A stretch of DNA of 64,000 nt from a virus (Duplodnaviria; Heunggongvirae; Uroviricota; Caudoviricetes), in the IMG/VR virus record IMGVR_UViG_3300013121_000010, positions 77,903-141,902 of that record. One strand, 5' to 3'. The translations under genes and the position numbers were made by a program. The notes under the pieces were generated by a model, which saw only the letters and a list, made by a program, of their open reading frames with translations, was not told the DNA's origin and did no database searches. This document shows positions 10,314-34,677 of this stretch, piece after piece. Within the stretch, counting starts at the first letter, position 1. Each line of letters starts with the position of its first letter.

Positions 10314-10325
10314 GATTGTACTTAA

Positions 10326-11461: not shown

Positions 11462-11487
11462 CCTTGAATTTTAAATTATGTTTTAAA

Positions 11488-12027: not shown

Positions 12028-12093
12028 ATTATTTAATTCTCTTTACTTATCTTCTTTCCTGCTTTCCTACATTAATTTATGTTCCTATCATTG

Positions 12094-14796: not shown

Positions 14797-15130
14797 CCAT
14801 TATTATTATTTTTTTGCTAATTTCATCTGTTATAACATTAATGTCATTGCACCAATAAGCATCGTTCCAAGTTTCATGCCCAGGCTCAATCTTAAATCTA
14901 TAAACCAAATGAACACAATTATTGTTATAGTCTATGAAAAATGTATATGGTTCAGTTATTAGCCAATATGGTGGATACATTAAGTATTTGTTTAAAATAC
15001 TGGAAATATCATTATTGATATTAAAATCACAATCCCTACTTATAATCTTATTATCTTTCAATAATAAAAATTCTGGTTGTCCACTATTCCTGTCGTAAGA
15101 TAAAACAATAGCGTGTTCAAATACCTTCAT
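14780..15130 (-). CDS. hypothetical protein
   Basis: ORF only. Confidence 0.35.
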   Translation of the reverse strand: MKVFEHAIVLSYDRNSGQPEFLLLKDNKIISRDCDFNINNDISSILNKYLMYPPYWLITEPYTFFIDYNNNCVHLVYRFKIEPGHETWNDAYWCNDINVITDEISKKIIIMGVQNV

Positions 15131-15608
15131 TTATAATTTTCCTAAAATTAGATATACTTATATTATCTACTCTTTTGAATATATCATTTAATATCTCATT
15201 ATCCTTATATAGTTTAATACAAGCGTTATTATCGCCTACATTAACTAAATCTTTTAATGGTTTAACATATTGAACATATTCTTTCAACACATTTGTTTTG
15301 CAAATCCAAACGCTTTTATGTAAAACACAAAACCAAAAATTAGATTTTGTTATAGATATACCTGACGGAGAACATTTTTTGCTATTATAGTATTCTATTG
15401 CTATATTACCGCTTTTTTCTTGATATGAATCAAATTTTACTTCCGAAGTAAAAGTAAATTTGCAACACAGTGACTTACTAACTAAATCATAGTAAGACAG
15501 TTCATCTTTGTCAATATTAAAAGATGTTTTGTAGCCAGAATTTTCTAGAATTCTAAATACTAATTTTTCAGCTACTTTAGCAAGATTATTATCATTCAGA
15601 AATGACAT
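15117..15608 (-). CDS. hypothetical protein
   Basis: ORF only. Confidence 0.35.
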   Translation of the reverse strand: MSFLNDNNLAKVAEKLVFRILENSGYKTSFNIDKDELSYYDLVSKSLCCKFTFTSEVKFDSYQEKSGNIAIEYYNSKKCSPSGISITKSNFWFCVLHKSVWICKTNVLKEYVQYVKPLKDLVNVGDNNACIKLYKDNEILNDIFKRVDNISISNFRKIINEGI

Positions 15609-16152
15609 ATTTTTTAATTTTATTTAAACCAGCATTATATATTTGATGAACTCTCTGTTTAGTTAATGATAGGTCATTGCTTATTTGTTCAAAAGTATCA
15701 CTTGTCAGTATTCTTCTGCTTACACATTCATGTTCATGCTTAGTTAAATTACTATTTGATAATATCTCATTAAAATTATCTTCTGAATACTCAGTTTTAT
15801 TAAATAATGCTATCTTATCATTTAATTCTGAAATTGTTCCGCTTTTCTTCTTTTGTTTAATATATTCAGAAAAATATTTTTTAGCACCTTGATTAATACA
15901 ATAGATTATATATCTTTCAATTGATAGATTTGATGAAGAATCATATCTCATGTGACCACAAACTGCATAATATAACAAAAATGTTATAAAATCTTCATTG
16001 TTTATTAACCTAGCTTTATTTCTATGGTAAGTTATAATAACTTTTTTAATTAAATCGACATATTTTTTTTCTTCCCATAAGTCTATACCACTACTATTTA
16101 CCATAGTATTATTTTTTAATGATTTAGTCACATTTATATCAGATAAATACAC
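15592..16152 (-). CDS. sigma-70 family sigma factor-like protein
   Basis: C-terminal region 4.2-like HTH ISNDLSLTKQRVHQIYNAGLNKIKKY. Confidence 0.45.
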   Translation of the reverse strand: MYLSDINVTKSLKNNTMVNSSGIDLWEEKKYVDLIKKVIITYHRNKARLINNEDFITFLLYYAVCGHMRYDSSSNLSIERYIIYCINQGAKKYFSEYIKQKKKSGTISELNDKIALFNKTEYSEDNFNEILSNSNLTKHEHECVSRRILTSDTFEQISNDLSLTKQRVHQIYNAGLNKIKKYVISE

Positions 16153-16154
16153 AA

Positions 16155-16637
16155 CTATTTTCCTTTATTTTTAACAAACGAATTTTCTAATAAAATATCT
16201 ACAAATTTCTTTATTGTTCTATATACATTAGATTTTTTTGTAAAAGAATACTTTTCTAATGCTTCATCTTCTATCCAATCTCTTAAAGATGAACCAAACT
16301 CTTGACTTCTAGCTAACCAATCACATACCATTTCAGCTAAAGCTACATCTGGCATTTCATTAATACCACCCCAAAATTCAGGATGATGGTCATTAGAAGA
16401 TTGATGTTCTATAATAGCTAATTCTAGAAATTTTGGGTCTACTTTAATACCCTGATGTAGATAATCCCATTCGATACCAGTAAACTTAGAATTGTCGTGA
16501 CGGTATCCTCTAGCTATTAATTCTCTGCCTACAACCTCATCGCCTTGTTTTATTAATCTATTGCCAAGTAATAAACATGCTTCTCTTACTAAATCTATAT
16601 GTCTTGTAAGATTATCTAAATGTTCTTCCGTATCCAT
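16155..16637 (-). CDS. hypothetical protein
   Basis: ORF only. Confidence 0.35.
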   Translation of the reverse strand: MDTEEHLDNLTRHIDLVREACLLLGNRLIKQGDEVVGRELIARGYRHDNSKFTGIEWDYLHQGIKVDPKFLELAIIEHQSSNDHHPEFWGGINEMPDVALAEMVCDWLARSQEFGSSLRDWIEDEALEKYSFTKKSNVYRTIKKFVDILLENSFVKNKGK

Positions 16638-16663
16638 TTTTCTCCCTTTTATTATTAATAAAG

Positions 16664-16735
16664 TGTCTCTACTAGGAATTGAACCTAGACCATTACGTTA
16701 GGACCGTAAGATGCTATCCTTTACACTATAGAGAC
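16664..16735 (-). tRNA. tRNA-Arg (CCT)
   Basis: Acceptor GTCTCTA/TAGAGAC; anticodon stem TTACG/CGTAA with loop GTCCTAA; T-arm CTAGG-TTCAATT-CCTAG. Confidence 0.55.
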
Positions 16736-16797
16736 ATTTGTGATAGCTCAAGCGTATTTATAACAACAATAAATACACGAACGCTATCACTTTGAAG

Positions 16798-16869
16798 TAC
16801 CCTAGCTAGGATTTGAACCCAGTCTAATTCTTTCGTAGAGAATCGTGCTATCCATCACACTCCAAGGGC
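16798..16869 (-). tRNA. tRNA-Arg (ACG)
   Basis: Anticodon stem ATTCT/AGAAT with loop CTACGAA; T-arm CTGGG-TTCAAAT-CCTAG. Confidence 0.5.
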
Positions 16870-16878
16870 ATTCTAAAG

Positions 16879-16951
16879 TCCGCTCACAGAGACTTGAACT
16901 CTGAACTCACAGGGTAAGAGCCTGGGATGTTGCCGCTAACACCTTGAGCGG
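16879..16951 (-). tRNA. tRNA-Lys (CTT), tentative
   Basis: Acceptor CCGCTCA/TGAGCGG; T-arm CAGAG-TTCAAGT-CTCTG; anticodon loop CTCTTAC. Confidence 0.45.
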
Positions 16952-16986
16952 GTGTTTCTTAATTATATCAGAAACTTCGTTTGTTG

Positions 16987-17418
16987 TCAAGCACCTCTAA
17001 ATTTATGTCCAAGCTCATCAGCCTCACTATTAAGCTCTCTACCAACCCAACCAAAGTGGAACCTATCTATATAATATAAAGCATTTAAACTTTCATATAT
17101 TTTCCTTGCATTACCAATTATTAATTGTAAATTTTCAGATTTGCAAGCATATTCACCAGTAATTTGTCTTACAACTAATTGACTGTCACCAACAATTTGA
17201 ATATGTTTATACCAATCTTTATATGAATAAGCAAATAATAGAGCTTGGTAAGCAGCAAAAGCTTCTGCAACATTATTAGTTTGTGGCAAATCAACTGGAC
17301 ACCTTCCAGCTAATTCACAAAGCTTTCTTTTGGTGGTTAAACACTTACCAACTACTGACCAAACAGCATCGCCGTTTGTATTCCCACCGTCAAAATTTAA
17401 AACTAATGAATTAGACAT
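16987..17418 (-). CDS. rnh: ribonuclease H
   Basis: DGG..G, AEAFA, GDSQLVV and NSEADELG blocks of RNase HI. Confidence 0.75.
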   Translation of the reverse strand: MSNSLVLNFDGGNTNGDAVWSVVGKCLTTKRKLCELAGRCPVDLPQTNNVAEAFAAYQALLFAYSYKDWYKHIQIVGDSQLVVRQITGEYACKSENLQLIIGNARKIYESLNALYYIDRFHFGWVGRELNSEADELGHKFRGA

Positions 17419-17710
17419 TAATAACCTTTTTTAATTGAAAATAATCGCCGTTATGGTATCTAACTCTAATATCATAAGGAAGATTTAACGGTAAACAAAA
17501 ACCTTCTTTTATTGACTGTAACCAACAAGCATGAAATAATATTGGATTAAACAAATTATTATTGAAATTGTAAACATAAAATTCATAAATAAATTGAGAA
17601 TTTTTATTGTCTTTAACAAGAACCTCTAATTTGCTTTCAAGAGGAAATCCATAACCAATATAACTTATATCACATTGAAGTATCTCTATATTTAATTCAG
17701 GAATTTTCAT
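17411..17710 (-). CDS. hypothetical protein
   Basis: ORF only. Confidence 0.3.
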   Translation of the reverse strand: MKIPELNIEILQCDISYIGYGFPLESKLEVLVKDNKNSQFIYEFYVYNFNNNLFNPILFHACWLQSIKEGFCLPLNLPYDIRVRYHNGDYFQLKKVINV

Positions 17711-17928
17711 TAGGATATATCCTCTAATTTTTTCATAAAATCTAATATATGTTGATAAGCCTGCATTCTTGCTGTAGCATCTATATAATTTTCTGATTTA
17801 CTAGAGTATTGACCATCAGCACAATATCCTATATTTTCCAGTATTTCGTCTTTTAAATCATGCCACATTAATTCGTAATCTCTCATTTTCAAACACCTCT
17901 TTCCAATAAGAAAGTTTAACTTTCTCAT
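17710..17928 (-). CDS. hypothetical protein
   Basis: ORF only. Confidence 0.3.
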   Translation of the reverse strand: MRKLNFLIGKRCLKMRDYELMWHDLKDEILENIGYCADGQYSSKSENYIDATARMQAYQHILDFMKKLEDIS

Positions 17929-18805
17929 AACTTATGTCTTTAAAACTATTTTTACCGTATTCAACCAAATCTTTAATAGCATTTTTGCTTAAAAATAAAC
18001 TTTTCAAAACTAACATTGGTAATTCTCTGTATGTTAAAGCAAGAGAAGGATTATCTACTAATGGCAACACACCTAAATATATAGCTTCCAAATTCCTGTA
18101 ACAATCAATACCATTTCCGCACGGTGATATTACAGTATGATGCTGTGCTAAATCCATCAAGTATTCTTTATAAGGTTTCTTTTCTTCTGCTTTAATTACC
18201 GTTGCAAAATCTGAATTTTGATAGTAAGATTCTAATTCTGCTCTTTCATAAGTGTAATTAGTCCAGTTTACATAAACTAGAGAACGTTTTTGAATATCAA
18301 TATCAATTTGATTTAATATATCATCTTGTGAATTAGCTGGTACTCCAAATGGTATTTGTATTATTCTATTATCATCAATAGTTTGGCAGTTGGTCGTAAA
18401 CCATCTTACTATATTACTAGGAATATTATTAAATGTGTAAGTAGTCCATGCATAACACTTAACTGAATATTTATCACTTAATTTACACTTATCAACATCA
18501 CATCTTGGACCAATATTTATTCCATTATAACCAATTTCCGGTGTAACACACATTCTAGCCCATTTAATTAAATCAAAACACGGTTGATTGTATAATTGTT
18601 CAGTTACACCAAAATCAGAACAAGAGCTAACAACAACAAATTTTAAATATGGGTTTTCTTTACAATACTCAAAGAAACTTTGCATTTCTTCTAGATTAAC
18701 ATGTATAAGACCGCTTTTTGGCTTATCTCCAATCTTATAAACACTATCACAAAGACCTTTATAAGACTCACAAGTTATAATATCTTCTTTTTTTATAGAT
18801 AACAT
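17858..18805 (-). CDS. hypothetical protein
   Basis: 315-aa ORF in an operon with the ATP-grasp gene. Confidence 0.35.
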   Translation of the reverse strand: MLSIKKEDIITCESYKGLCDSVYKIGDKPKSGLIHVNLEEMQSFFEYCKENPYLKFVVVSSCSDFGVTEQLYNQPCFDLIKWARMCVTPEIGYNGINIGPRCDVDKCKLSDKYSVKCYAWTTYTFNNIPSNIVRWFTTNCQTIDDNRIIQIPFGVPANSQDDILNQIDIDIQKRSLVYVNWTNYTYERAELESYYQNSDFATVIKAEEKKPYKEYLMDLAQHHTVISPCGNGIDCYRNLEAIYLGVLPLVDNPSLALTYRELPMLVLKSLFLSKNAIKDLVEYGKNSFKDISYEKVKLSYWKEVFENERLRINVA

Positions 18806-19536
18806 TTATTTACAGCCTCAGCAAATTTAACTCTATCACAAGCATATAATCCAGAAGTGTGAATACTATTATATTCAACAACTTTGTATTCACCGTTTCT
18901 TCTCATACAAACATCAATAATGTAACCCTTTTGAGGATTGAACATACTTATAATTTTTTTTGTATAACCAATAGCTTTATCTGGTACTTTATTATCTATT
19001 TTAACACCTAAAAAATCTCTATATTTAGAACATGTAATTATTTCTTTATTTATTACAACAAATCTATATTCTTCCTGTATATATTTATCTAGCGGTGACA
19101 CAAAAATAAGTTCACTATTTGGTACTTTTAAAAGTTCACAATTAGCAATAAAATCATTAACTTGTGAAATATGTAAAAGTGTGCCAGGGAAAGTTCTAAC
19201 CGGAGAGATAGGTTTAATAAAAATATCAGTATATATATAATCTTTATTTCTAATTCTATTCTTGAATATTTGATATGTCATTATGTTAGAATAATAATTA
19301 AGTGCTTCATCACCTAATTTACCAACATAAGTAAGATAGTCTAAATTTTCACATAATTTTTTTCGATAATAAACTAAAGCTCCGTTTATACTAGAATAAA
19401 CAAAACGTTTAGATTTTTCTGCTCTAGAATAATCAATTATATCATGGTAAGAAACTAACTTATAAGGTGTTTTAGTATCTTCTAGAGCTTGACACATAAG
19501 TTCAGATTCTAAAAAGTCTTTTTCAACTAACCACAT
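18793..19536 (-). CDS. ATP-grasp fold protein
   Basis: EYRFVVINKEII and IIDVCMRRNGEYKVVEYNS resemble ATP-grasp C-terminal motifs. Confidence 0.45.
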   Translation of the reverse strand: MWLVEKDFLESELMCQALEDTKTPYKLVSYHDIIDYSRAEKSKRFVYSSINGALVYYRKKLCENLDYLTYVGKLGDEALNYYSNIMTYQIFKNRIRNKDYIYTDIFIKPISPVRTFPGTLLHISQVNDFIANCELLKVPNSELIFVSPLDKYIQEEYRFVVINKEIITCSKYRDFLGVKIDNKVPDKAIGYTKKIISMFNPQKGYIIDVCMRRNGEYKVVEYNSIHTSGLYACDRVKFAEAVNKCYL

Positions 19537-19939
19537 TTTCCACCTTGTAAATATATACTGGCTTACCTAATTTCTTCATATAATTAATCATGTGAGCAGT
19601 TCCACTACTTACACCATCCCATATAGCTAAGCAAGCATCAGCAAAATCACCCATTTTAATATTTCTATCAAGTCCAGCCCTAGCATTGTAATAACCTTCA
19701 TCATCGCCCGGTCTAACATCTACTATAGCACCCGGAGCTTTTAAGTCATGCCATAAAGCCTGGAAAACTTGATATTTTATACCATTTTCCTTTGCATACC
19801 TTTCGCCTAACTTATCAACGCCTTTTGCTCCACCACTAACTATTAAAGTGGCTTTTTTATGAGTATTAGACTTTTTAATTGCGTCTAAAACTATATTGTA
19901 GTCTGTTATTGAACGACTACCGCAAATTATTATTTTCAT
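19523..19939 (-). CDS. SLOG/DUF2493-like nucleotide-binding protein
   Basis: IICGSR...VSGGAKGVD Rossmann-like SLOG pattern. Confidence 0.4.
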   Translation of the reverse strand: MKIIICGSRSITDYNIVLDAIKKSNTHKKATLIVSGGAKGVDKLGERYAKENGIKYQVFQALWHDLKAPGAIVDVRPGDDEGYYNARAGLDRNIKMGDFADACLAIWDGVSSGTAHMINYMKKLGKPVYIYKVENVVS

Positions 19940-20216
19940 AAATTGTAATCTCTTTTGAATTTGGAAGAATAATTAATCCATAATCCCATTCTTGTAATAA
20001 GTAAAAAATACACATTGATATATTTATATCATTTGCTATACTTTCACTTACTAAAATTTCAAACTCTCTAGTTATTTCACAAGCATTATTTTTAAGATAG
20101 TCCTCACAAAAACTTTGTAAGTCACCGTGCAAATATTTAGAACGCCATTCGTTTGGAAGCTTTTCTTCCATAAGTTTGGTTACATGAGCTAAAACTTCAC
20201 TAGACGCCTGCGGCAT
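19917..20216 (-). CDS. hypothetical protein
   Basis: ORF only. Confidence 0.3.
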   Translation of the reverse strand: MPQASSEVLAHVTKLMEEKLPNEWRSKYLHGDLQSFCEDYLKNNACEITREFEILVSESIANDINISMCIFYLLQEWDYGLIILPNSKEITIYENNNLR

Positions 20217-21261
20217 TTCTTATACTCCTTGAACTCAAATCTACAGGAACAAAATCTTCTTGAAATTCAAAGAAATTCTCATAACCACTAATAAGCTTTT
20301 CATTACCTCTTGGGAAAACAGCAAATTTGTTATTGTATATAAAACAATATTCAAGTAATTTACCTAATGATTCTTTATGTCTTATTATTCTATTAGCAGT
20401 ATCAACACCTACTAAATAGGTAGAATTTATTGGGTATAAGTGAAATTTATCTATAAATAAAGGAGCTTTAGTAAAACAAACAGCATTTATATTATTTTCT
20501 TTATACAAAACACTTCTATTTCTATAATCAAGATAATCAAGATTAGGTTTATCGAAATTTTGTACAGATATGTCTAACGTTACTTTTTGTTTAAATTTAT
20601 TAGCCGAATAATTTATTATAGCACGATGACCATCATGTAATGGATTAAAAGAACCTGAATATATAAGATTGCTGCATTTTTCACTATTTATAATAACTTG
20701 CTTAAGAGCAAACTGTTCTTTAGTATCAAAAAATAATCTTGGTGTATCTTCTTCGTGCTGGAAATAGAATTTTTCAGATTTTACACAATCCCATTCATCT
20801 TCTGATAAATGAAAAGTTCCCATTTCAAGACCATCTAGAATTACTTCACTTACTAATTCTTCTTCTTCTTGTCTGCTTCTATTTTCAAGCAATTTAAAAC
20901 TTGTACTACAAATAACTTCACGTTCTAAATATGTAATGTGAAATGAGTGTTCTCTACCAACCCTCTCTACATTACTAGAACGCAAACTTGCACAACAAGC
21001 AAGAGAAACGCACTCATTGAAATCATAACCCAAATCTAACATCTTTTGCATACCGGCCATTGCAAGTTGTCTTGATGTTAGTTGTGAATTATATTTTTCA
21101 GGTTTAAAACCAAGAAAATCATCTACACATTTTGTAGAATATGGAACGTAAGCACCGGCAAAATAGCTTGACGCACCACCATTTCTTAGTATTTTACCTA
21201 TAGCTTCTGTGCCACCGCCAGTAATAGTCAGAAAAAGTTTTTTATCCATAATTAATACCAT
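20200..21261 (-). CDS. nicotinamide-nucleotide adenylyltransferase domain protein (NatV-like)
   Basis: GSFNPLHDGHRAII HxGH nucleotidyltransferase motif in the C-terminal half; lies beside nadV. Confidence 0.65.
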   Translation of the reverse strand: MVLIMDKKLFLTITGGGTEAIGKILRNGGASSYFAGAYVPYSTKCVDDFLGFKPEKYNSQLTSRQLAMAGMQKMLDLGYDFNECVSLACCASLRSSNVERVGREHSFHITYLEREVICSTSFKLLENRSRQEEEELVSEVILDGLEMGTFHLSEDEWDCVKSEKFYFQHEEDTPRLFFDTKEQFALKQVIINSEKCSNLIYSGSFNPLHDGHRAIINYSANKFKQKVTLDISVQNFDKPNLDYLDYRNRSVLYKENNINAVCFTKAPLFIDKFHLYPINSTYLVGVDTANRIIRHKESLGKLLEYCFIYNNKFAVFPRGNEKLISGYENFFEFQEDFVPVDLSSRSIRNAAGV

Positions 21262-21525
21262 ATTAGATTATTGAATAGTTATCTCATAGCCGCGATTCTG
21301 TTAATGTTTATGGTCGCCCATATAACATCGTTTAATATTTATCTGTTTAGTAAACTAAACCGGAGTATTAACTTCCGCGCCTTAACCCGAATATCATAGG
21401 CCCGCAATCCGCCTAATTCTGTTTAAGTTGCTGCCATCTGCGTGATACAAACGAAACCACGATTAAAACGGGTTTCTCTCACGGTCTGCGGAGCAGTCAC
21501 GAACTTCCTCGGGGTTTCCCCCGCA

Positions 21526-24006
21526 TTAAACCGAATAACTTTTCAATAATCTTTGCTTTATATAACTTAAATTTGTTGTTTTCTCAGAATATCCATTGTA
21601 AAATACTGTCTGTAAACAATCTAAACTGTTATATATTTTTTTACTTACAGTTTTATAACTCCCGTTTTCTTTAATGAGAGATAAACGCCCTCTTTTTGAA
21701 GTCTTAAAAGATTGTCCAACAGGCTCTTTATAAACATCATATTCTTCATCATCAATTGCAATACTACTACACTTTATAGCAAACCCCATTGTATCTCTAT
21801 CTAATTTTTGTAAAAGACCACCGCCACTTCCAAATGTTAAATTATCTAGTGACCACTTGTTTGTTAAACAAACTGTATCAAGAATATTGAGTAAACTATT
21901 TCTATTAATTCCATCACCCTGAATAACCCTTACTTTAGGATTTAGAACTTTAAATCCTTTGGAGTTAGTAGTGTAACCAAACTTTTCTCCTAGAACATTT
22001 AAGATTTTAGGTAGAACTTCAAGTGGGTCGCCAGAGTTACCACTAATAGATATTCTATGGTTTCTACGAACTATAATAGCCCCACTAGGAACAGTAACAC
22101 AATATACTTTACCATCATAATTTTTAAAAGTTTTTTCTATACCTTGCCCATCTATAAAATCTTGTTTTATAATATGAACAGTATGTACATCATTAAAAAT
22201 ATCTTTTCTATTATCTTTAGCTATACTGTATTTAGTTTTATACCCAGAAAAACAAGCTAATAATTGCACTATTTCAGCATTAATACCAATAGTTGTATCA
22301 TATTTAAATCTTTTATCACTTCTTCTTGTACCATCCCAATAAGAACACTCTTCTATAAATTGTTGACAGTATTTATAATCTATGTTATTAATAATATCAT
22401 TAACCCATTTAAAATCTTTAAAAATACTAAAAGGTACTTTTACATATATAGTTTTTTGATTCTCTCTTTCTTTTTCTTGATGTATAGAATATTCATAACA
22501 TCCTTCTTCACAAATTTTTATAATACGTTCTATTTTTCTTTGTTTGGTAAAATTAAATCTAATCTTAGTAAAACCATTTTTAAATGAATTTTCTTGATTA
22601 TGATTACTTTCATAAGAACCATCTGCTTGAAACGCTATTTTAATAGCGTGTTCTGGAGTAAATAAAATTGGATTTAAACAAGTTAATTTACCAGCCATTA
22701 TATGATTTCTATCATGGTAATACTTAATATCTTTAGCTTGTTTTACAAATATTTCCCCCTTTTTATTTTTAGTATAACATCTATGATTTGGAGTAACTAA
22801 TAAGTCTACCCCACGTTTATCATTAAAAATACTTACCATTTCGCCAATATAATCTTGGCATATGTATTTTACTGGTTTAACAAACTCTATATTACCATTA
22901 TTATATTGAGCTACATATGTATTAATATTGATACTGTTAAATAACTTCCATCCATCATTTGTTAATATTTCAGTTTTTTCATCATAACAGTCTGGCCTAA
23001 CTACAAGCACACCATCCCTATTTAAAACTTTATCTCTTAGTTCTCCACCCCAAATATTTTCACAAGCATTAAAAATGTCATAGCTATCACTAACACAAGC
23101 AACAAAACCTTCTGGATACACTTTAAGCATATTTCTGTATGCCTCTACTTCTCTGCTTTTACCCCACGAAGTAATAGTTGAATGTTCACTTGCCGGTATA
23201 GAGCTTCCACAACTGGAAGTTGTTTCATCAGCATAATATTCATCTAAAAGTTGAATACCTGCAAGAGTATCAGTACCTTTAAAATTTAATAGGTGAGCAG
23301 CAGCACCAATAGCTGCCGTTTCCATACTAGAAACACCTCTAAAACCGAAATCATGCAGTTTATAATCTACATAACTTTCTGGTTCGTCAGAACTAAGTCT
23401 ATGAAACTTTAAAAGTTTCTTTTTAAGGTAATAAGATTGAGAAGCTACAGTAATAGGATACCAAACTTGCATAAGTAAGGTTTCCAAATAATTTGTAAGC
23501 CAAAAGAACCTATCATCTGTATTTTCAATAATCATTAGGACATTTCCTACTGGAACTACTGAACCTTCTGGAACCGCGTTAATAATAACTGGTAAACGCC
23601 CACCGTATTCTTTATACATTTCAGCCCAACCTTGAGTGTTGAACTTGCAATTTGGCATATATTTAGAATGAAAAGCTTCAGCATCTTTAATATCATTCAT
23701 GTTAAATACATGACCAGTTAAATGCTTTTCAATTAAGTATTGTAGACCGAAAAATACGGTTTCTCCATTACCAAAATCATCTTTACCACCACGAGCTTCT
23801 AAATAAGAATAAATTCCTTTTGTTCCTGGTGGGTATTGCTCATAGTGTGATAACTTATAACCGTCTGTTTTAAGAATTAAGTTCACTGTAAAGTTCCTTT
23901 GCTGAATTTTCCCAACTAAACATTTTAGCAGTTTTAATGCCTTCGGCATTTTCAACGCCTGTCTTGCTCTGTAAGAGATTATACATGACTTCGGCAACGC
24001 TGTCAA
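21526..24006 (-). CDS. nadV: nicotinamide phosphoribosyltransferase (NadV/NAMPT) interrupted by an intein
   Basis: LILKTDGYKLSHYEQYPP N-terminus; the RPD-SGDP active-site motif is split by a 318-aa Hint insertion; the true start is probably an internal Met near 23949 (MPKALK...). Confidence 0.8.
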   Translation of the reverse strand: MTALPKSCIISYRARQALKMPKALKLLKCLVGKIQQRNFTVNLILKTDGYKLSHYEQYPPGTKGIYSYLEARGGKDDFGNGETVFFGLQYLIEKHLTGHVFNMNDIKDAEAFHSKYMPNCKFNTQGWAEMYKEYGGRLPVIINAVPEGSVVPVGNVLMIIENTDDRFFWLTNYLETLLMQVWYPITVASQSYYLKKKLLKFHRLSSDEPESYVDYKLHDFGFRGVSSMETAAIGAAAHLLNFKGTDTLAGIQLLDEYYADETTSSCGSSIPASEHSTITSWGKSREVEAYRNMLKVYPEGFVACVSDSYDIFNACENIWGGELRDKVLNRDGVLVVRPDCYDEKTEILTNDGWKLFNSININTYVAQYNNGNIEFVKPVKYICQDYIGEMVSIFNDKRGVDLLVTPNHRCYTKNKKGEIFVKQAKDIKYYHDRNHIMAGKLTCLNPILFTPEHAIKIAFQADGSYESNHNQENSFKNGFTKIRFNFTKQRKIERIIKICEEGCYEYSIHQEKERENQKTIYVKVPFSIFKDFKWVNDIINNIDYKYCQQFIEECSYWDGTRRSDKRFKYDTTIGINAEIVQLLACFSGYKTKYSIAKDNRKDIFNDVHTVHIIKQDFIDGQGIEKTFKNYDGKVYCVTVPSGAIIVRRNHRISISGNSGDPLEVLPKILNVLGEKFGYTTNSKGFKVLNPKVRVIQGDGINRNSLLNILDTVCLTNKWSLDNLTFGSGGGLLQKLDRDTMGFAIKCSSIAIDDEEYDVYKEPVGQSFKTSKRGRLSLIKENGSYKTVSKKIYNSLDCLQTVFYNGYSEKTTNLSYIKQRLLKSYSV
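22036..22989 (-). mobile_element. intein in NadV with a LAGLIDADG-like endonuclease domain
   Basis: VVRPD + C YDEKTEILTNDGW ... ISISGN + SGDPLEV; FQADGSY LAGLIDADG-like motif. Confidence 0.6.
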
Positions 24007-24967
24007 CGGTCACGCTGGCCCAATTACCAACCATCCCGTCAAACCAAATTCCATCCCAGGCAGGTTCTAAACCTTTTGGTTTTATAAGAATTGAATTTTT
24101 ATCACTACAGAATTGAGTATGTGCAGAGTAATCGGTAATACCAATCCACTTACCACAAGCAAGCATTTCAAGGGCTTCTAAATTCCAACCTTCTGCTCTA
24201 GATGGAAAAATACCAAAGTCTGCCTCATTCATAATTGCGGCGACTTCTTGTTGGGTTTCTACTCTTCCAAGTAGTTTAACTCTACTATCTTCTGCATAAG
24301 GTTTTACCCATTGTTTTGTTTGTTGTTCACTTAAAAATGGGTTATGATTCATCATCCATAATTCAACGTCGTCTCTACCTTTAAAAGCTTTTTGAAAAGC
24401 AGAAAGAAGTATATCGTGACCTTTTCTTATTTCCCATTTACCTATATTAAGAAATACGATTTTGCCATCCTTTCTTTTTTTAGGTTTAGGATTAAAGATT
24501 GATGTATCTACACCAAGGGGAATAACGGAAGTTTTAATAGAAGAACAATCTTCAACTACTTCCTTAGCCCAATCTGAACAAACAAAAACTCTGTCTAAAG
24601 CTGATAGGTGCCACAACTCTCTACTTGTAAACTTATTAAGTTCAAATATTGGAAAACCTATACGCTCACCCTTACCTATATGTTTTGCCATATCAAACTG
24701 ATGCCAAATCAGTAAGGACGGTGCAAGAGGGTCATACATATTTTGACGGTCAATACAACACCCGATAATCGTTTTATCTAAGTCAGAACATTTATAAACT
24801 ATATTTCCAATTGGAAAAAGGGTTGTTTCAAATAACCCACTATTTTCCATTGCTTTTAGAAGGTGAAACCCAGTTTGACCATATCCTAGTGAATTTATAG
24901 GACATTGAAGATTAATATTCATTTTACCACCTACTAATTGAAGTTTCACCAATAATACCTTCTTCAT
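23870..24967 (-). CDS. glycosyltransferase family 1 (GT4-like)
   Basis: C-terminal GT-B motifs EADFGIFPSRAEGWNLEALEMLACGK. Confidence 0.65.
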   Translation of the reverse strand: MKKVLLVKLQLVGGKMNINLQCPINSLGYGQTGFHLLKAMENSGLFETTLFPIGNIVYKCSDLDKTIIGCCIDRQNMYDPLAPSLLIWHQFDMAKHIGKGERIGFPIFELNKFTSRELWHLSALDRVFVCSDWAKEVVEDCSSIKTSVIPLGVDTSIFNPKPKKRKDGKIVFLNIGKWEIRKGHDILLSAFQKAFKGRDDVELWMMNHNPFLSEQQTKQWVKPYAEDSRVKLLGRVETQQEVAAIMNEADFGIFPSRAEGWNLEALEMLACGKWIGITDYSAHTQFCSDKNSILIKPKGLEPAWDGIWFDGMVGNWASVTVDSVAEVMYNLLQSKTGVENAEGIKTAKMFSWENSAKELYSELNS

Positions 24968-25325
24968 TTATTTTATAAAAAATTATAAAATTTCTATTTA
25001 CATAATCATTAATTAAAATAGCAAATGAATGACTAAATACACAGTGATTATCCTTACGTTTACATTCCTTAATTAAATCTTCTACGCATTCTAAGAATGT
25101 GCTAAAATTAAAATAATTTACGGCAAAAGCAAAGGAAAAGATACTACCTTTAGCTGATTCATTAATATATTTTCCAGCACCACCATTCTTTTTAATAGCC
25201 GCCCAAATATTCCAGTGAGAATTATCAATTTCTGTATATCTATCTAAATTGCTATTTAAATATTTTTCAAACTTATCTGAATCACAAATTTCTAATGTAA
25301 AAGTTATATTGCTAACACTACTCAT
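24924..25325 (-). CDS. hypothetical protein
   Basis: ORF only. Confidence 0.3.
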   Translation of the reverse strand: MSSVSNITFTLEICDSDKFEKYLNSNLDRYTEIDNSHWNIWAAIKKNGGAGKYINESAKGSIFSFAFAVNYFNFSTFLECVEDLIKECKRKDNHCVFSHSFAILINDYVNRNFIIFYKINEEGIIGETSISRW

Positions 25326-25684
25326 TAATAAACCTCATAGTTTATGTAAACAGGAATATTATATTCATTAGATATATCAGTAAAAACCTTTTCTAAGTAA
25401 TTTTTCTTTTCTGCAAAAACTTCACCTTTAATATCTATATTAACTTTTAAGTGTTTATAGAAAAACAAGAAATAAGCTTCTTTATTAATAGTAATAGTTA
25501 CATTAACTCCATTATATTCTCCGGAGAAATTAAGAATAGTAAAGAAGGGGATAGAATAGGTGAAAATGACATAACTATTGATATAATATTCATTTTCATA
25601 TTCTCTTAAATATTTTAATATTTTTTGTTTTAACATACGCCATAAATATTTTTCTTCATTTATATTATTTATCTTAATTGACAT
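25325..25684 (-). CDS. hypothetical protein
   Basis: ORF only. Confidence 0.3.
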   Translation of the reverse strand: MSIKINNINEEKYLWRMLKQKILKYLREYENEYYINSYVIFTYSIPFFTILNFSGEYNGVNVTITINKEAYFLFFYKHLKVNIDIKGEVFAEKKNYLEKVFTDISNEYNIPVYINYEVY

Positions 25685-26376
25685 TTCTTAATTTCCCTTT
25701 TATTCAATTGTCTTTTAGATACAATCACTTTATTGTAAGAGTAAGTATTACGAGAACCATAAACACCAGTTCTATTAATATTGTATTTTATATAATGTAG
25801 ATAAGAATGTCTATCAAAAGCATCTGGGAAAAACCACCCTTTCTTAGCAATTTTAACTTCTACTTCATACCATATACCTTCTCTCTTATAATAATTCTTA
25901 CCATCTATTAACTTAATCTGATTAAAAGAATTAGAAGTTTTACGATAAACCTTTTTGTTTTCTGATTTTTGCAAGCATCCATTTTCATTTACAAAGAAAA
26001 TATCATTAAGACCAGAATATCTTTTGTCTAGTACCCGTCTATTTATAATCAAATTCAGAATATAACGTTCTTGCTGTTTTGTATAGATTGAGTAAAGTTC
26101 AGACTTTATATCATTAAAGTTTCTACCAATGTTTTTGTTTAAGAAGCCAAGAATAGGCTGGTCATAATAAGACCAACTCTTTGTGTCCCAACCGTAAACT
26201 TTACGAAGGTTTCCATTATCAGCAATATTTGATTTTTTACCATTTCTTACAGCTTTGTAAGATGGTAAGAAAGACGGTCTTTTAGAACCAATCGCTATTT
26301 TCTTTTTACTTTTCATAGACGCTAATAGCAGAATCGAACTGCCTACCGTAAATTTTGCAGATTCATGCCGGACCAC
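25669..26376 (-). CDS. hypothetical protein
   Basis: ORF only. Confidence 0.35.
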   Translation of the reverse strand: MVRHESAKFTVGSSILLLASMKSKKKIAIGSKRPSFLPSYKAVRNGKKSNIADNGNLRKVYGWDTKSWSYYDQPILGFLNKNIGRNFNDIKSELYSIYTKQQERYILNLIINRRVLDKRYSGLNDIFFVNENGCLQKSENKKVYRKTSNSFNQIKLIDGKNYYKREGIWYEVEVKIAKKGWFFPDAFDRHSYLHYIKYNINRTGVYGSRNTYSYNKVIVSKRQLNKREIKKCQLR

Positions 26377-26397
26377 CCGACTTTCGGTTTATTAGCG
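26319..26397 (-). tRNA. tRNA-Cys (GCA)-like with an enlarged D region
   Basis: Acceptor CGCTAAT/ATTAGCG; anticodon stem TGAAT/ATTTA with loop CTGCAAA; T-arm GGCAG-TTCGATT-CTGCT; D region about 6 nt longer than canonical. Confidence 0.45.
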
Positions 26398-26402
26398 AAA
26401 AG

Positions 26403-26473
26403 TGCCTGTAGACAGAATCGAACTGTCGAAGTTTGATTGGAAGTCAAACAGTTTACCACTAACTTACACAGGC
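26403..26473 (-). tRNA. tRNA-Gly (TCC)
   Basis: Acceptor GCCTGTG/TACAGGC; D stem AGTT/AACT; anticodon stem TTTGA/TCAAA with loop CTTCCAA; T-arm GACAG-TTCGATT-CTGTC. Confidence 0.6.
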
Positions 26474-26490
26474 TTAGAAGCTCACGTTTT

Positions 26491-26519
26491 ATTATATCGC
26501 AAGAAGGTCGTTTTGTCAA
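26491..26519 (-). promoter_or_regulatory. sigma70-like promoter TTGACA-17-TATAAT (minus strand) upstream of tRNA-Gly
   Basis: Reverse complement reads TTGACAaaacgaccttcttgcgaTATAAT. Confidence 0.55.
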
Positions 26520-26788
26520 TATATTTTCATATTTATGATATAATTAAACTTATCAACAATATAATCAATTATATATGTTTTCCTAATATTCTTTGCAAAG
26601 CAAACATAAATAAAAATGTAGCTTAAAGGAAATGGTTGAATTGCTATCATAAAAGCAACTAGCAAATCAGTAAATATTAATTCGCATAACTCTCTTCTAA
26701 AACAACCTATTATTTTTAGTAGAGTAATTAGTGAAATTAAAACGTAAATTAATATAAAGTAATACATAATTTTATTCTTGAAAATCAT
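26516..26788 (-). CDS. small membrane protein
   Basis: Two or three hydrophobic helices. Confidence 0.3.
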   Translation of the reverse strand: MIFKNKIMYYFILIYVLISLITLLKIIGCFRRELCELIFTDLLVAFMIAIQPFPLSYIFIYVCFAKNIRKTYIIDYIVDKFNYIINMKIY

Positions 26789-26851
26789 CAGCTACAATAT
26801 AACTATTTAACATTTACCGCTTTACGAATTGTATTTTTCTCTGTTCTTCTT

Positions 26852-26916
26852 TAAAAGTAGAACATTTAGATGCAAATTCTTTAGTGTAGAACATTTAGAT
26901 GCAAATTCTTTAGTTA
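26852..26916. repeat. tandem direct repeat, about 31 bp x2
   Basis: gtagaacatttagatgcaaattctttagt occurs twice in tandem. Confidence 0.6.
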
Positions 26917-27020
26917 TGCCAATTTGTCTATTAAAATAGAATATTTTTTTACTTCTATTTCTTTTTATTTTTGCACTTAAAAGCAAAGGAAGTGAAAATA
27001 AATAAAATATGAAATACCTT

Positions 27021-27386
27021 CTATTCAATTGCTAATTCCTTACACTTATTAATAAGTAATTTTAAATTTTTTTCTGTTTTTGTACAAATATCTTTAATCA
27101 TCCAACTAAAGAATACATTAGCAATATTATTAGTAACATCTTGTACATTTGAACTGTAACCAAAAACTGTCATCATATTAACAAACTCATTATAAATTGC
27201 ACAATATGCATTTTCTCCATTAAGATAAATTTTAACATCTTCTAAAGATGGAGTATTAGAAGAATGATAAGAATATACTTGATTATGGTTTTCACATGGA
27301 ATCCCGCGAGGAACCACTAAAACAAGACCATCACCATAAGGATTATAATCTACATAAAGTGGTGTATTAGGTATCTGTACGCTCAT
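27021..27386 (-). CDS. hypothetical protein
   Basis: ORF only. Confidence 0.35.
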   Translation of the reverse strand: MSVQIPNTPLYVDYNPYGDGLVLVVPRGIPCENHNQVYSYHSSNTPSLEDVKIYLNGENAYCAIYNEFVNMMTVFGYSSNVQDVTNNIANVFFSWMIKDICTKTEKNLKLLINKCKELAIE

Positions 27387-27456
27387 AATTGTCTCCTTTA
27401 TTCAAAACATATTCTTCCCAGGTTTGCTGCTAAACTACTTCGCGTTATCTCCAAAG

Positions 27457-27527
27457 TGCGATATACCGTAATCGAAACGGTGACTAAAATTTGGTAAATT
27501 TTTATTTTTCCACTAAACTAATATCGC
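27457..27527 (-). tRNA. tRNA, anticodon uncertain (loop TTACCAA)
   Basis: Acceptor GCGATAT/ATATCGC; T-arm ACCGT-TTCGATT-ACGGT; AT-rich body. Confidence 0.4.
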
Positions 27528-27535
27528 GTTACACA

Positions 27536-27610
27536 GTCCTACCATTAAGAATCGAACTTAACGTCTCAATGTTATCAGCATTGATTTAGCAACCAGCTAA
27601 ACTAGTAGGA
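27536..27610 (-). tRNA. tRNA-Ile (GAT)
   Basis: Anticodon stem CAATG/CATTG with loop CTGATAA; T-arm TTAAG-TTCGATT-CTTAA. Confidence 0.55.
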
Positions 27611-27619
27611 TAAATTAAG

Positions 27620-27711
27620 CGAAGGCTGAGGGAGTCGAACCCTCACCGGATTTTACTCGCGGATTAGTTTAGCAAACTAACGTAACAAAACCACATTTTT
27701 ACCTAACCTTC
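27620..27711 (-). tRNA. tRNA-Ser (GCT), type II
   Basis: Acceptor GAAGGTT/AGCCTTC; anticodon stem TTAGT/ACTAA with loop TTGCTAA; long variable arm; T-arm GAGGG-TTCGACT-CCCTC. Confidence 0.5.
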
Positions 27712-27722
27712 ATTGCTCTTAT

Positions 27723-27751
27723 ATTATACCGGACGGTTCCCGTATTGTCAA
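27723..27751 (-). promoter_or_regulatory. sigma70-like promoter TTGACA-17-TATAAT (minus strand)
   Basis: Reverse complement reads TTGACAatacgggaaccgtccggTATAAT. Confidence 0.55.
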
Positions 27752-27786
27752 GTCAAGTGGCGGTTATACCGCATAAGCTAAATTCT

Positions 27787-28068
27787 CTAAACTTTCTGAC
27801 TTTTGCATAATTCCTCAAATATCTTTACAATAATATCACCGTGGCAAGCCAGCGGTTTACAATAACAACCAAGCCTAGCATCGCCTTTGTGACACAGTGA
27901 TTTTATATGATTCATAATGACTGGACTAGAACGAGCATATTCCTCGTACTTCATTATAACGGTTTCTCGGTCGCCGTCAACCCCTATAACGTAGGGATTC
28001 CCAAACGGAGAACCACGACCTATGTATATATCGTATGGTTCTTTTTTAAGATTAACTACTGTTAACAT
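27787..28068 (-). CDS. DUF4326-like protein
   Basis: YIGRGSPFGNPY...CYCKPLACHGDII pattern. Confidence 0.45.
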   Translation of the reverse strand: MLTVVNLKKEPYDIYIGRGSPFGNPYVIGVDGDRETVIMKYEEYARSSPVIMNHIKSLCHKGDARLGCYCKPLACHGDIIVKIFEELCKSQKV

Positions 28069-28070
28069 TT

Positions 28071-28265
28071 CTAGCAGGAACCTTCAGGTTGGTTCTGAAA
28101 TGGAACTCCGTAATTCTGGTAGATACCATGCTTAAGACCTGTTTTCTTGACAAGTACTAAATCTAAATGCTCATTTATACATTTAATTTGTTCTTCATTC
28201 AGTTTCTTCGGTTCGCCCAATTCTAAAAAACCACGCAACCAATAGCAAAAATTCAAACTTTCCAT
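28071..28265 (-). CDS. hypothetical protein
   Basis: ORF only. Confidence 0.3.
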   Translation of the reverse strand: MESLNFCYWLRGFLELGEPKKLNEEQIKCINEHLDLVLVKKTGLKHGIYQNYGVPFQNQPEGSC

Positions 28266-28277
28266 TTCTTATTCCTT

Positions 28278-28481
28278 TTAACTTTTCCCAACATATTCAT
28301 TATTCCAAAAGTTCTTACACATAGCAACCCATCTATCATTAGAGATTCCATGTAATTTATTTCTATTTGTTAGTAGAAAGCATATTCCGGCAGGTGTATT
28401 TATATCAAACCCCTTTCTTTCCATTTCCATTAAACAGAATTCTACAGCAGCTTTTTGTTTTTCATTTAAAGTAAAATACAT
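28278..28481 (-). CDS. hypothetical protein
   Basis: ORF only. Confidence 0.3.
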   Translation of the reverse strand: MYFTLNEKQKAAVEFCLMEMERKGFDINTPAGICFLLTNRNKLHGISNDRWVAMCKNFWNNEYVGKS

Positions 28482-28565
28482 AATTTATTCATCCATAAGT
28501 TTATAAACAATAGATGCAAGGAAAACTGCAAATATTGTTGAAACGATAAAAATAAACATTTTACA

Positions 28566-29777
28566 TTATAAAATCTGTTTAGCTGGACCTTCAACAAAAT
28601 ATCTAGGTCTACCAGATAAGTCTGTTACCTGTTCTTTTGGGTTAATTCCACCGTGTAGTAGAATAGTATTTAGTAAGTCAATAGGTTGATAGCTTTCAGA
28701 TTTTGGAGCCATACCGTCTTTGTCCACTTCACCAATTACGGAGCCTCCAAAATTACCGCCACCTAGCATTAAAGGCACCGCTCTTGCCCAGTGGTCGCGT
28801 CCAGAGTCCTTATTTATTAAAGTTCTGCCAAACTCGGTTGTGACGACAACCAATGTATCTTTAAGCATACCACGGTCACGCAAGTCTGTCAATAGGGCAG
28901 CTACGCCATTATCAAGTTCTGGACCGCGATTTTCCCAACCATTCTTAATATTTTGGTGCATATCCCAACCACCACTACCAATAGTTACAAATCTAACACC
29001 ATTTTCAACAAGTCTACGAGCTAACAAACAAGATTGACCAAATTGAGTGGAACCATATAACTTATGCATAGATTCAGGTTCGTTCTTAACTTCAAAAACT
29101 TCTCTTACACCACCGATAAGCATATTCTTACCTTGTGTTTTATAACCATCAATATCATTAGCTGTTCTAGTGCCCTTAAACTTTGTATCCATTTGTTCTA
29201 ACATATAGAAACGTTGTGCGAAACGTTCTTTTTCAAGAGAAAGTTGTAAATTCTTCTTTCCTTCTGCACTTACACTAAATGGATTATATGTAGAACCAAT
29301 AAAGGAAGCACCTTCTGCGTGCAATCTGCTAGTAGCTACATAAGCTGGAATGCCACTATTATTTGTTGGCCCATACTTATATGAGAAAATAGCACCAATA
29401 CCAGGGTGATTGATTTGTTCTTCTCCTGTACTATTATAGCCGGTCATTGTATAGTGACTAGCACTACCATGCGAAGCGTTATTGTGTCCATAATTATGTA
29501 CTAAACTATAAGTATCACTTATATTAGCTAATTTTGTAAAAGTGCCACCTAAAAGAAATCCGTTTCTTGTTTTATTATAACCTGTTACAGATAAAGCTCT
29601 TTCATTTACGCTATCTTTACAAATAAACGATTCTTGATGAGAAGCTCCACCTTGCAAGAAAATAAATATAATTGATTTTCTACCAGTTTTTACTTGTTCT
29701 GCATCAATTATATTATTTAATCCAAAACAACTAAAACCACTTAAAATACCAGCTTGCACAAAAGTTCTTCTATCCAT
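28566..29777 (-). CDS. DUF1501-like protein with an N-terminal twin-arginine (Tat-like) signal
   Basis: MDRRTFVQAGILSGF Tat-type leader; GSGGWDMHQN...TTEFGRT blocks typical of the DUF1501 family (sulfatase/phosphatase-like fold, abundant in Planctomycetes and Verrucomicrobia). Confidence 0.5.
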   Translation of the reverse strand: MDRRTFVQAGILSGFSCFGLNNIIDAEQVKTGRKSIIFIFLQGGASHQESFICKDSVNERALSVTGYNKTRNGFLLGGTFTKLANISDTYSLVHNYGHNNASHGSASHYTMTGYNSTGEEQINHPGIGAIFSYKYGPTNNSGIPAYVATSRLHAEGASFIGSTYNPFSVSAEGKKNLQLSLEKERFAQRFYMLEQMDTKFKGTRTANDIDGYKTQGKNMLIGGVREVFEVKNEPESMHKLYGSTQFGQSCLLARRLVENGVRFVTIGSGGWDMHQNIKNGWENRGPELDNGVAALLTDLRDRGMLKDTLVVVTTEFGRTLINKDSGRDHWARAVPLMLGGGNFGGSVIGEVDKDGMAPKSESYQPIDLLNTILLHGGINPKEQVTDLSGRPRYFVEGPAKQIL

Positions 29778-30510
29778 TTTTTATTTTCTCCGAAACTTTA
29801 CAACATAAATATTTAAATAAATCTTCACTTAAACCCATTTTCATGATATTTATATGTTTATGAACCCATTGAACATTATTTTCTAAATAACCTATATTAG
29901 AATCAATTCTATCTAAAGAAGCTGTTATATCAAAATCAAAACCAATATAAATTGGTAAGTCAGATAAAGCACATTTAAAGTTTTGTTTTTTTAATAAATT
30001 ATCTATATATTCTATAGAAATTTTAAATTCAAGATTTCTCTTTTTAGCATTATGATAAATACCATTAAAATATGTTCCAGTTACATATTCACAGCCTTTA
30101 TAATTAAAGCTTTTACGACCAGAAAAATTTAGTGTTTTACATTTTACACAACCAATATCGCGTTCTATATCACTTACTCTTTTTTTTATTATATCATTAC
30201 ATAAACATACGACTATATATGTATTATCATTGATATCATAATCAGCTATTATGAAACCAGAATTAGTTATATCTCCAATTTTATATTTTCTTGTACTTAC
30301 TATAAAACACTTTTTACAAACTTTACTATGGTTTAATCTTTTTAGATTGTAATCAATAACATCTATTACAATACCACATTTACATCTACATTTATAGTAA
30401 TGCCTTTTATTTTTGATAAAATGAGATTCAACGGTAAAATATCCGTATTTTTTATTTATTTCTAAATTTATTTTCTCTTGAGATTTTTTAGGCATATCTA
30501 TCTTATACAC
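29770..30510 (-). CDS. HNH_3-type homing endonuclease
   Basis: C-terminal ASLDRIDSNIGYLENNVQWVHKHIN motif of HNH_3 endonucleases; Cys-rich N-terminus. Confidence 0.5.
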   Translation of the reverse strand: MYKIDMPKKSQEKINLEINKKYGYFTVESHFIKNKRHYYKCRCKCGIVIDVIDYNLKRLNHSKVCKKCFIVSTRKYKIGDITNSGFIIADYDINDNTYIVVCLCNDIIKKRVSDIERDIGCVKCKTLNFSGRKSFNYKGCEYVTGTYFNGIYHNAKKRNLEFKISIEYIDNLLKKQNFKCALSDLPIYIGFDFDITASLDRIDSNIGYLENNVQWVHKHINIMKMGLSEDLFKYLCCKVSEKIKNG

Positions 30511-30527
30511 CTACTCCAAAATCTATG

Positions 30528-31556: not shown

Positions 31557-31561
31557 ATTAT

Positions 31562-32425: not shown

Positions 32426-32584
32426 TAAAATTTTCCTTTAAAAGAAACATAAACCAAATAAACTGATAATAAAATTGAGAACAAACCTAGACCGTTTAAT
32501 ATTGAATCTGGTGCTGATAATAATCTACTAGATATGAAAAATGTAATTAGACAAGATAAAATTGTTAATATTCTAAGCATATAC

Positions 32585-33134: not shown

Positions 33135-33137
33135 TTT

Positions 33138-34675: not shown

Positions 34676-34677
34676 AT

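Follow-up and report, generated by a model that had tools for sequence, protein, structure and literature searches.

The window analysed here is the whole 64,000-nucleotide (nt) stretch of the IMG/VR virus record IMGVR_UViG_3300013121_000010 covering positions 77,903 to 141,902, and on its minus strand it carries a nadV gene for a nicotinamide phosphoribosyltransferase (NAMPT/NadV) whose active-site motif is split by an in-frame insert with the properties of an intein. The enclosing open reading frame (ORF) spans 21526..24006 (-) with its stop codon at 21526..21528; the coordinates of the other features are collected in Table 1. The likely start codon is the GTG at 23886, which has an AAGGA 9 nt upstream and is also the start of an identical database protein. 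The resulting 786-residue product is 100% the same as this protein (P0122), which is encoded on a 148,730-bp JGI contig. With this start the insert comprises residues 300-617 of the precursor; the alternative start, ATG 23949, gives a protein of 807 residues.

The host protein is readily recognized on both sides of the insert. The full ORF matches the NCBIfam family NF006629 (nicotinate/nicotinamide phosphoribosyltransferase) with 544.7 bits (cut-off 405) and an E value of 1.6e-163, in two stretches that are broken at the insert, and it contains the Pfam domains NAMPT_N and NAPRTase. When the insert is deleted in silico, the product can be aligned with mouse NAMPT (2h3d) over one uninterrupted stretch (E 7.8e-136), and the spliced junction vvrpdsg-dpl pairs with IIRPDSG-NPL of 2h3d with 0 gaps. 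The active-site motifs PASEHSTITSWGK and RPDSGDP of NadV align to PAAEHSTITAWGK and RPDSGNP of 2h3d, so that membership in the NAMPT/NadV group follows both from the curated family, scored above its cut-off, and from the motifs. In mammalian NAMPT numbering, for which the three additional N-terminal residues of the 2h3d chain were corrected by comparison with 2gvl, the insert lies between D313 and S314, within RPDSG residues of the PRPP (phosphoribosyl pyrophosphate)/ribose-binding active site. The initial annotation of this locus, made from the sequence alone, had described a 318-residue insert at 22036-22989 with Cys first, Asn last and Ser at +1 that splits the RPDSG motif of NAMPT. These coordinates proved exact, and the alignment of the extein halves to a NAMPT structure, which it had named as a check, rebuilt a full NAMPT.

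The insert measures exactly 318 residues (954 nt), is in frame with both exteins and has a G+C fraction of 0.249, compared with 0.348 and 0.300 in the exteins. With a slash marking each junction, the translation reads ...RDGVLVVRPD/CYDEKTEILTNDGW...IIVRRNHRISISGN/SGDPLEVLPK..., the insert ending in RRNHRISISGN before Ser+1. The splicing nucleophiles Cys1, Asn318 and Ser+1 are thus present, together with a block B T66-P-N-H69, and these match the core residues of a class 1 intein, namely a nucleophile at 1 and +1, a C-terminal Asn and the block B Thr-x-x-His. A database search with the insert alone returned 122 homologous proteins (best E 3.2e-75), in which the homologous segments are hosted by NAMPT, the beta and alpha subunits of ribonucleotide reductase (RNR), PhoH, DNA polymerase A (PolA), GTP cyclohydrolase I, ThyX, helicases and uracil-DNA glycosylase. 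All homologues begin with Cys, and GN followed by C, S or T is found in 49 of the 50 aligned rows that reach past the intein; Pfam PF14890 and PF14528 are found in some of them. In a 51-sequence alignment of the intein family, from which all conservation counts in this report are taken, C1 and H69 are conserved in 51/51 sequences, T66 in 50/51 and N318 in 49/51, while G13 is invariant. A movable element that has fixed ends and occupies conserved motifs of different enzymes is by definition an intein, and the insert is to be regarded as one.

The predicted structure agrees with this assignment. An AlphaFold2 model built on the 51-sequence alignment has a mean predicted local distance difference test (pLDDT) score of 95.8 and a predicted TM-score of 0.92, and its top Foldseek matches in the PDB are endonuclease-containing inteins, with TliVMA (7qsu, E 3.9e-14) followed by PI-PfuI (1dq3, 1.5e-12), PI-SceI (1vde, 3.3e-11) and PhoVMA (7qst). 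Both ends of the model match mini-intein and hedgehog Hint domains, including the hedgehog autoprocessing domain 1at0, so the model and Foldseek together place the element in the Hint fold. The number of homologues, the model confidence and the 544.7 bits of the extein halves against NF006629 put the insert far beyond chance. The claim of the initial annotation that the insert is an intein is therefore upheld by the Hint fold, by C1, T66xxH69 and N318/S+1, and by the same boundaries across unrelated hosts.

The middle of the element is a LAGLIDADG homing-endonuclease domain. The first LAGLIDADG helix carries AIKIAFQADGSY, with motif 1 reading IKIAFQADGSY (D123, G124), and a second motif, absent from the initial annotation, lies in QFIEECSYWDGT and reads FIEECSYWDGT (D219, G220). 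There are thus two helices that each present an acidic residue followed by Gly. An acidic residue is kept at position 123 in 50/51 family members, G124 in 50/51, K191 in 46/51 and D219 in 48/51, and G220 is at least 90% conserved. The middle domain matches I-SceI (1r7m), I-DmoI (2vs7) and I-Tsp061I (2dch) in Foldseek at a probability of 1.00, and Pfam PF14528 is carried by many family members. The endonuclease domain proposed initially on one motif thus stands on two, and on a fold like those of PI-SceI, PI-PfuI and I-DmoI. We conclude with high confidence that the insert is a bona fide class-1-type intein with a two-motif LAGLIDADG homing endonuclease, located between the Asp and Ser of the nadV RPD/SGDP motif.

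A natural allele that lacks the element was recovered by searching with the spliced exteins, which returned a 468-residue NAMPT (P0121) that has no intein and is 98% identical. Its contig, L010 (Logan assembly of SRR28714614, 3,291 nt), has the same upstream GT4 glycosyltransferase gene and is colinear with window positions 25077..20833 minus exactly the 954 nt of the intein, at a quoted identity of 99.6%. The intein-less site, at nt ~2040-2140 of this contig, reads ...GCTATCCGTCCAGAT/TCAGGAAACCCACTT..., and neither allele disrupts the frame or the catalytic motif (...LRDKVLNRDGVLVVRPD/SGDP... for the window, ...LQDKVLNRSGTLAIRPDSGNP... for L010). The two sequences differ at 28 positions in 3,291 nt, of which 24 fall within -99..+40 of the insertion point and 20 within -47..+7, giving a divergence of ~17% in the 140 nt around the junction compared with ~0.13% elsewhere. 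The remaining four mismatches cluster at +753..+780 (window ~21256..21283), in the intergenic region between nadV and the gene for an NMNAT-like protein. As judged from the distribution of mismatches, the tract at the junction is what gene conversion at a homing site would be expected to leave, in either direction. The intein could have been gained along with short flanks of the donor, or lost through recombination with a diverged allele that had none. The near-identical intein-less genome and the conversion tract require that the intein was gained or lost very recently through recombination, and the event is very recent when set against the divergence of the window and L010 genomes. The clustered divergence also gives indirect support for an endonuclease that is active, or was so very recently.

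These features are consistent with the following pathway. Translation of nadV would give a 786-residue precursor. This form cannot be active, as 318 residues lie between the parts of its PRPP/ribose-binding site. The Hint domain would catalyse an N-S acyl shift at Asp(-1)-Cys1, the thioester would be transesterified to the hydroxyl of Ser+1, cyclisation of Asn318 would release the intein, and an O-N shift would restore a normal peptide bond. The predicted products are a 468-residue NAMPT, its RPDSGDP motif restored, and a free 318-residue intein. The latter may then cleave the DNA of intein-less nadV alleles in a site-specific manner when related phages infect the same cell, with repair from the intein-plus allele copying the intein and short flanking extein sequence.

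Several observations weigh against this interpretation. The Hint profile search named in the initial annotation was weakly positive, as Pfam PF14890 (Intein_splicing) does match the window sequence, at 21.8 bits (E 1.8e-4), but falls below its cut-off of 35.8 bits; the fold and family evidence compensate for this shortfall. At E<=1 the window sequence has no match to any Pfam LAGLIDADG model, PF14528 (LAGLIDADG_3) included. Searching the PDB sequences with the intein returned nothing significant (a lone chance match at E 0.29). An NCBIfam search with the intein likewise returned no family. The intein-less contig L010 is a short metagenome assembly. Finally, the residues that assist splicing are unusual. 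Position G:6 is Gly317 rather than His and position F:4 is Cys297 rather than Asp, each so in 50/51 family members, and the block F His is absent in the family. The penultimate His (G:6), the block F Asp (F:4) and the block F His normally assist splicing, although the G:6 His is not obligatory, since Mja KlbA is a working intein without it (PMC7765530). Because these deviations are common to 50/51 members, which lie in essential proteins, they indicate variant chemistry rather than a dead element.

One form that such chemistry could take is non-canonical splicing in which Cys297 acts as a nucleophile, as in class 3 inteins, or forms a redox disulfide with Cys1, making NAMPT maturation conditional. 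In class 3 inteins the F:4 Cys is the initiating nucleophile and belongs to a Trp-Cys-Thr triad (PMC7765530), and the F:4 Cys and penultimate Gly shared by 50/51 members, the missing block F His and the presence of the class 3 AceL NrdHF intein among the fold matches all point in this direction. The AceL match, however, reflects the shared Hint fold, and the other class 3 features are lacking. Position 71 (B:12 in the class 3 block numbering) is occupied by Cys in the window intein and by M, L, C or A in the family, with Trp never in the majority. Position 316 (G:5) is Ser here and varies in the family (S 24, T 11, C 9). The N-terminal nucleophile, needless in class 3 chemistry, is invariant as Cys1 in 51/51 sequences. 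With Cys1 invariant, B:12 not Trp and G:5 not consistently Thr, the class 3 definition does not apply, and splicing of this kind is improbable; on its residues the element is best filed as a class-1-type intein with non-canonical assisting residues. A related and rather speculative idea, to which we assign little likelihood, is that the family with Cys1, F:4 Cys and penultimate Gly uses hybrid or redox-gated splicing, for example through a Cys1-Cys297 disulfide or an F:4 branched intermediate. If redox gating were true, conditions in the infected cell would switch the maturation of a phage NAD (nicotinamide adenine dinucleotide)-salvage enzyme through their redox state, and the intein would have a regulatory role in addition to its selfish one.

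A different concern is that splicing is intact and the endonuclease has decayed, so that the element is immobile and inherited only vertically. Decay of the endonuclease is known as one stage in the life cycle of inteins, the lack of a LAGLIDADG model match would fit with it, and the nearest database intein is just 48% identical, leaving no recent donor visible. However, D123, D219, the glycines and K191 fit the family consensus, the endonuclease domain is modelled at high confidence, and a 99.6% identical intein-less genome has a conversion tract at the site; we regard decay as possible but on balance unlikely. The non-canonical block F and G residues might instead mark a dead remnant or a permanent domain insertion, with NadV either inactive or working with the insert in place, and a metagenomic NAMPT intein with Leu at +1 (P0004, described below) indicates that non-splicing variants may exist. 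This is very hard to reconcile with intact C1, N318, S+1 and block B TxxH residues, with a frame that stays open over 786 codons through a stretch of 25% GC, and with the same residue pattern in family members within essential RNR and DNA polymerase genes, and judging from the 2h3d alignment a 318-residue insert between D313 and S314 would be incompatible with the NAMPT fold. Removal at the RNA level, by a group I or II intron that encodes an endonuclease in frame, has a precedent of sorts in Pectobacterium phage CB7, whose nadV illustrates that phage nadV can hold intron or HNH elements (PMC7344957). The insert is in frame with both exteins, wraps a Hint domain around the LAGLIDADG domain and has intein boundary residues, and an Rfam scan of 21000..24500, group I and II introns included, gave no match even at E<=0.1. 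On the empty scan a group I intron is rejected, and we give RNA-level removal as a whole practically no credence. A class-1-type, endonuclease-bearing intein thus remains our preferred reading.

The surrounding genome is that of a large, AT-rich (31% GC) phage. A megablast of window positions 40000-60000 against INPHARED gave no match and the rIIA protein has just ~27-33% identity to rIIA of cultured phages, and we therefore consider the phage uncultured. Other window genes encode rIIA and rIIB homologues, a thymidylate synthase, a GMP-reductase-like protein and a DUF1501 protein. On sequence grounds, NadV and the NMNAT-like protein encoded directly downstream would form a two-step phage NAD salvage pair. 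The RNR large-subunit gene holds two further inteins, neither with sequence resemblance to the NadV intein, which makes this an intein-rich genome. The 6.7-kb stretch 40781..47516 has no ORF of at least 150 residues and is largely a tRNA/tmRNA region. The TROVE-domain protein next to it and the RNA ligase may constitute an RNA quality-control or repair module; the whole-window Rfam scan listed no Y-RNA-like partner, with no search aimed specifically at Y-RNA.

Table 1. Features of the nadV locus and of the rest of the window (all coordinates in the window; a slash marks an intein junction).
Feature	Coordinates	Strand	Basis or remarks
nadV/NAMPT precursor gene, intein included	21526..23886	-	786 residues from GTG 23886; NCBIfam NF006629, Pfam NAMPT_N and NAPRTase
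N-extein, NAMPT residues 1-299, C-terminal end ...VLVVRPD	22990..23886	-	mouse NAMPT alignment up to R311-P312-D313
Intein, 318 residues, Cys1 to Asn318	22036..22989	-	homologues, AlphaFold2 model, Foldseek, absence from contig L010
C-extein, first residue Ser+1 (SGDPLEV...), stop codon counted in	21526..22035	-	mouse NAMPT alignment from S314 on, junction gapless
Hint domain, N-terminal part, intein residues 1 to ~105	22675..22989	-	beta-strand region of model; block A (C1, G13), block B (T66-P-N-H69); boundary approximate
LAGLIDADG homing-endonuclease domain, intein residues ~106-282	22144..22674	-	helices 112-123 and 205-216 of model, fold matches; boundary approximate
Hint domain, C-terminal part, intein residues ~283-318	22036..22143	-	strands 285-299 and 304-317; block F VYCVTVP (Cys297 = F:4), block G ...ISISGN (Gly317, Asn318)
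Divergent tract, upstream part	22990..23089	-	20/28 mismatches at -99..0; 0 in 1,989 nt further upstream
Divergent tract, downstream part	21996..22035	-	mismatches +3, +6, +7, +40; next ones +753..+780
NMNAT-like ORF, 353 residues, directly downstream of nadV	20200..21261	-	C-terminal cytidylyltransferase-like domain, Pfam PF01467 E 8.3e-6; no PHROG match
RNR large-subunit ORF, 1,350 residues, C-terminal TSCPD domain	4297..8349	-	two further inteins
RNR LAGLIDADG intein, 403 residues	6829..8037	-	VSLSN/CFDKDT...GLISLN/CFVINS; Intein_splicing 47.5 bits, LAGLIDADG_3 41.1 bits
RNR apparent mini-intein, 127 residues, splits NPCGE motif	5878..6258	-	SLNP/CQPGHTKILT...CDVSN/CGEICL; Hint matches sub-threshold only
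26 tRNA genes, several clusters	10079..45521, mainly 37675..45521	-	ARAGORN
tmRNA match, Rfam RF00023	46393..46732	-	50.1 bits, gathering score 47; not called as tmRNA by ARAGORN
TROVE-domain (Ro60-like) protein, adjoins tRNA cluster	39215..40780	-	Pfam E 6.4e-10
RNA ligase	62307..63407	-	found in window

Members of the same intein family occupy NAMPT genes elsewhere, at two positions. A tblastn search of 50,697 phage records identified 11 genomes with a family member inside NAMPT. In six of these, Staphylococcus Kayvirus vB_SauM-T-SE-G1, G2, V1SA09, Stab20 and vB_Sau_Clo6 and Citrobacter phage Tr1, the intein lies at the site used in the window (site a, RPD/C...GN/SGDP), and BLAST comparison with the window intein over 318 residues gives 41.5-41.8% identity in the Staphylococcus phages and 40.3% in Tr1. 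The common insertion point, read as RPD/C...GN/SGDP in the window, vB_SauM-T-SE-G1 and Tr1, and the homologous sequence make these alleles of a single site-a intein. The other five, Staphylococcus phages phiSNIID and Stab23 as well as O1-102, B2-102 and T2-102, carry an intein 35% identical (BLAST) to that of the window at a second position (site b, SIPA/C...GN/TEHS), ~66 residues upstream of site a and directly before the NAMPT catalytic His region; this placement was established by alignment for phiSNIID and is deduced for the other four from identical match statistics. In phiSNIID (LC788704, 1998..4436) the site-b intein is present and the RPDSGDP site is empty. The same arrangement, with SIPA/C...GN/(S or T)EHS filled and site a empty, is found at 4001..6295 of the IMG/VR contig UViG_3300035208_002255 (L005), which was among the distant NAMPTs of 36-48% identity that were the only hits of an IMG/VR scan with the precursor.

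Metagenomic NAMPT fragments add 11 cases at site a and 7 at site b. In a neighbour-joining tree calculated without bootstrap, the inteins group by host protein and site, with the NAMPT site-a clade (n=7) including the window intein and the site-b inteins in a separate clade. One metagenomic protein (P0004, Logan) carries a site-a intein nearly identical to the Staphylococcus one and has Leu at +1 (GN/LGDPVKI). This substitution should block splicing, and as read from the sequence P0004 would be either a dead allele or the result of a sequencing error. A set of NAMPT-like proteins of 658-814 residues (P0123-P0130 and P0140, one of them from a protist transcriptome) was considered as further intein carriers and rejected, these being tandem NAMPT duplications or read-throughs instead.

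None of the GenBank records of the phages with NAMPT inteins annotates the element. A 2017 report described the NAMPT of vB_Sau_Clo6 as 796 residues long, 307 more than in other staphylophages, with an insertion that contains a Hint domain and is related to RNR inserts of phages Romulus and Stau2 (PMC5526547). The NadV of fRuSau02 has 489 residues, and the difference of 307 (796 - 489) equals the length of the intein that we extracted. NadV inteins at site a were thus already public, if superficially described, given the Clo6 report and this agreement in length; a literature search for an intein in NadV/NAMPT found no description apart from the Clo6 insertion (PMC5526547). The suggestion in the initial annotation that this might be a new insertion site is consequently withdrawn, as homologous inteins fill the same site in six GenBank phage genomes. 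The window intein is a divergent addition to an existing, poorly annotated NAMPT intein allele. A useful further result is the natural empty-site allele with its conversion tract.

Inteins have mostly been catalogued in replication and nucleotide-metabolism proteins, and NAMPT/NadV is a little-documented host. A single intein family uses two active-site positions of phage NAMPT as well as RNR, PhoH and DNA polymerase genes, a pattern in keeping with the idea that phages carry inteins from one conserved site to another. Alleles with and without the intein come from essentially the same phage and show a conversion tract; they could serve as a natural test system for homing in an uncultured population. 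On the practical side, phage NAMPT genes of ~790-890 residues deserve annotation as intein-containing, and the combination of F:4 Cys, penultimate Gly and Ser+1 after Asp-1 may interest protein engineers. The finding of an intein in NadV leaves the current understanding of inteins unchanged.

Among known systems, the NAMPT inteins of the Kayvirus phages and Tr1 are the closest to the window intein, as they share with it the Hint domain, two LAGLIDADG motifs, the F:4 Cys and the penultimate Gly. They are shorter, at 307-309 residues compared with 318, and their hosts are unrelated to the window phage, an uncultured AT-rich phage with rIIA/rIIB and many tRNA genes. The presence of the Kayvirus intein varies among close relatives, as seen with the 489-residue NadV of fRuSau02 and the 796-residue protein of Clo6. 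The published account of Clo6 (PMC5526547) extends only to a Hint-containing insertion, whereas boundaries and insertion site are given here. The site-b inteins of NAMPT (phiSNIID, Stab23, L005 and the metagenomic P0007, P0017 and P0033) belong to the same family, reside in the same enzyme and also interrupt an active-site motif. Further away are the RNR inteins of the Silviavirus phages Romulus, Remus and Stau2, which have ~31% identity over 318 residues and differ in host protein and sites, and metagenomic inteins of RNR-beta, PhoH and PolA with 27-37% identity to the window intein. The Silviavirus RNR inteins and the related RNR, PhoH and PolA inteins share with the window the signature C[YF]xxxTEILT...VTPNHR...VYCVTVP...VRRNGKxxIxGN. 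The best structural matches, PI-SceI (yeast VMA1), PI-PfuI and TliVMA/PhoVMA, have the same architecture of a Hint domain with an inserted LAGLIDADG domain. However, these inteins are only ~10-14% identical to the window intein, are larger (361-454 residues compared with 318), and carry the canonical penultimate His in place of the Gly found here.

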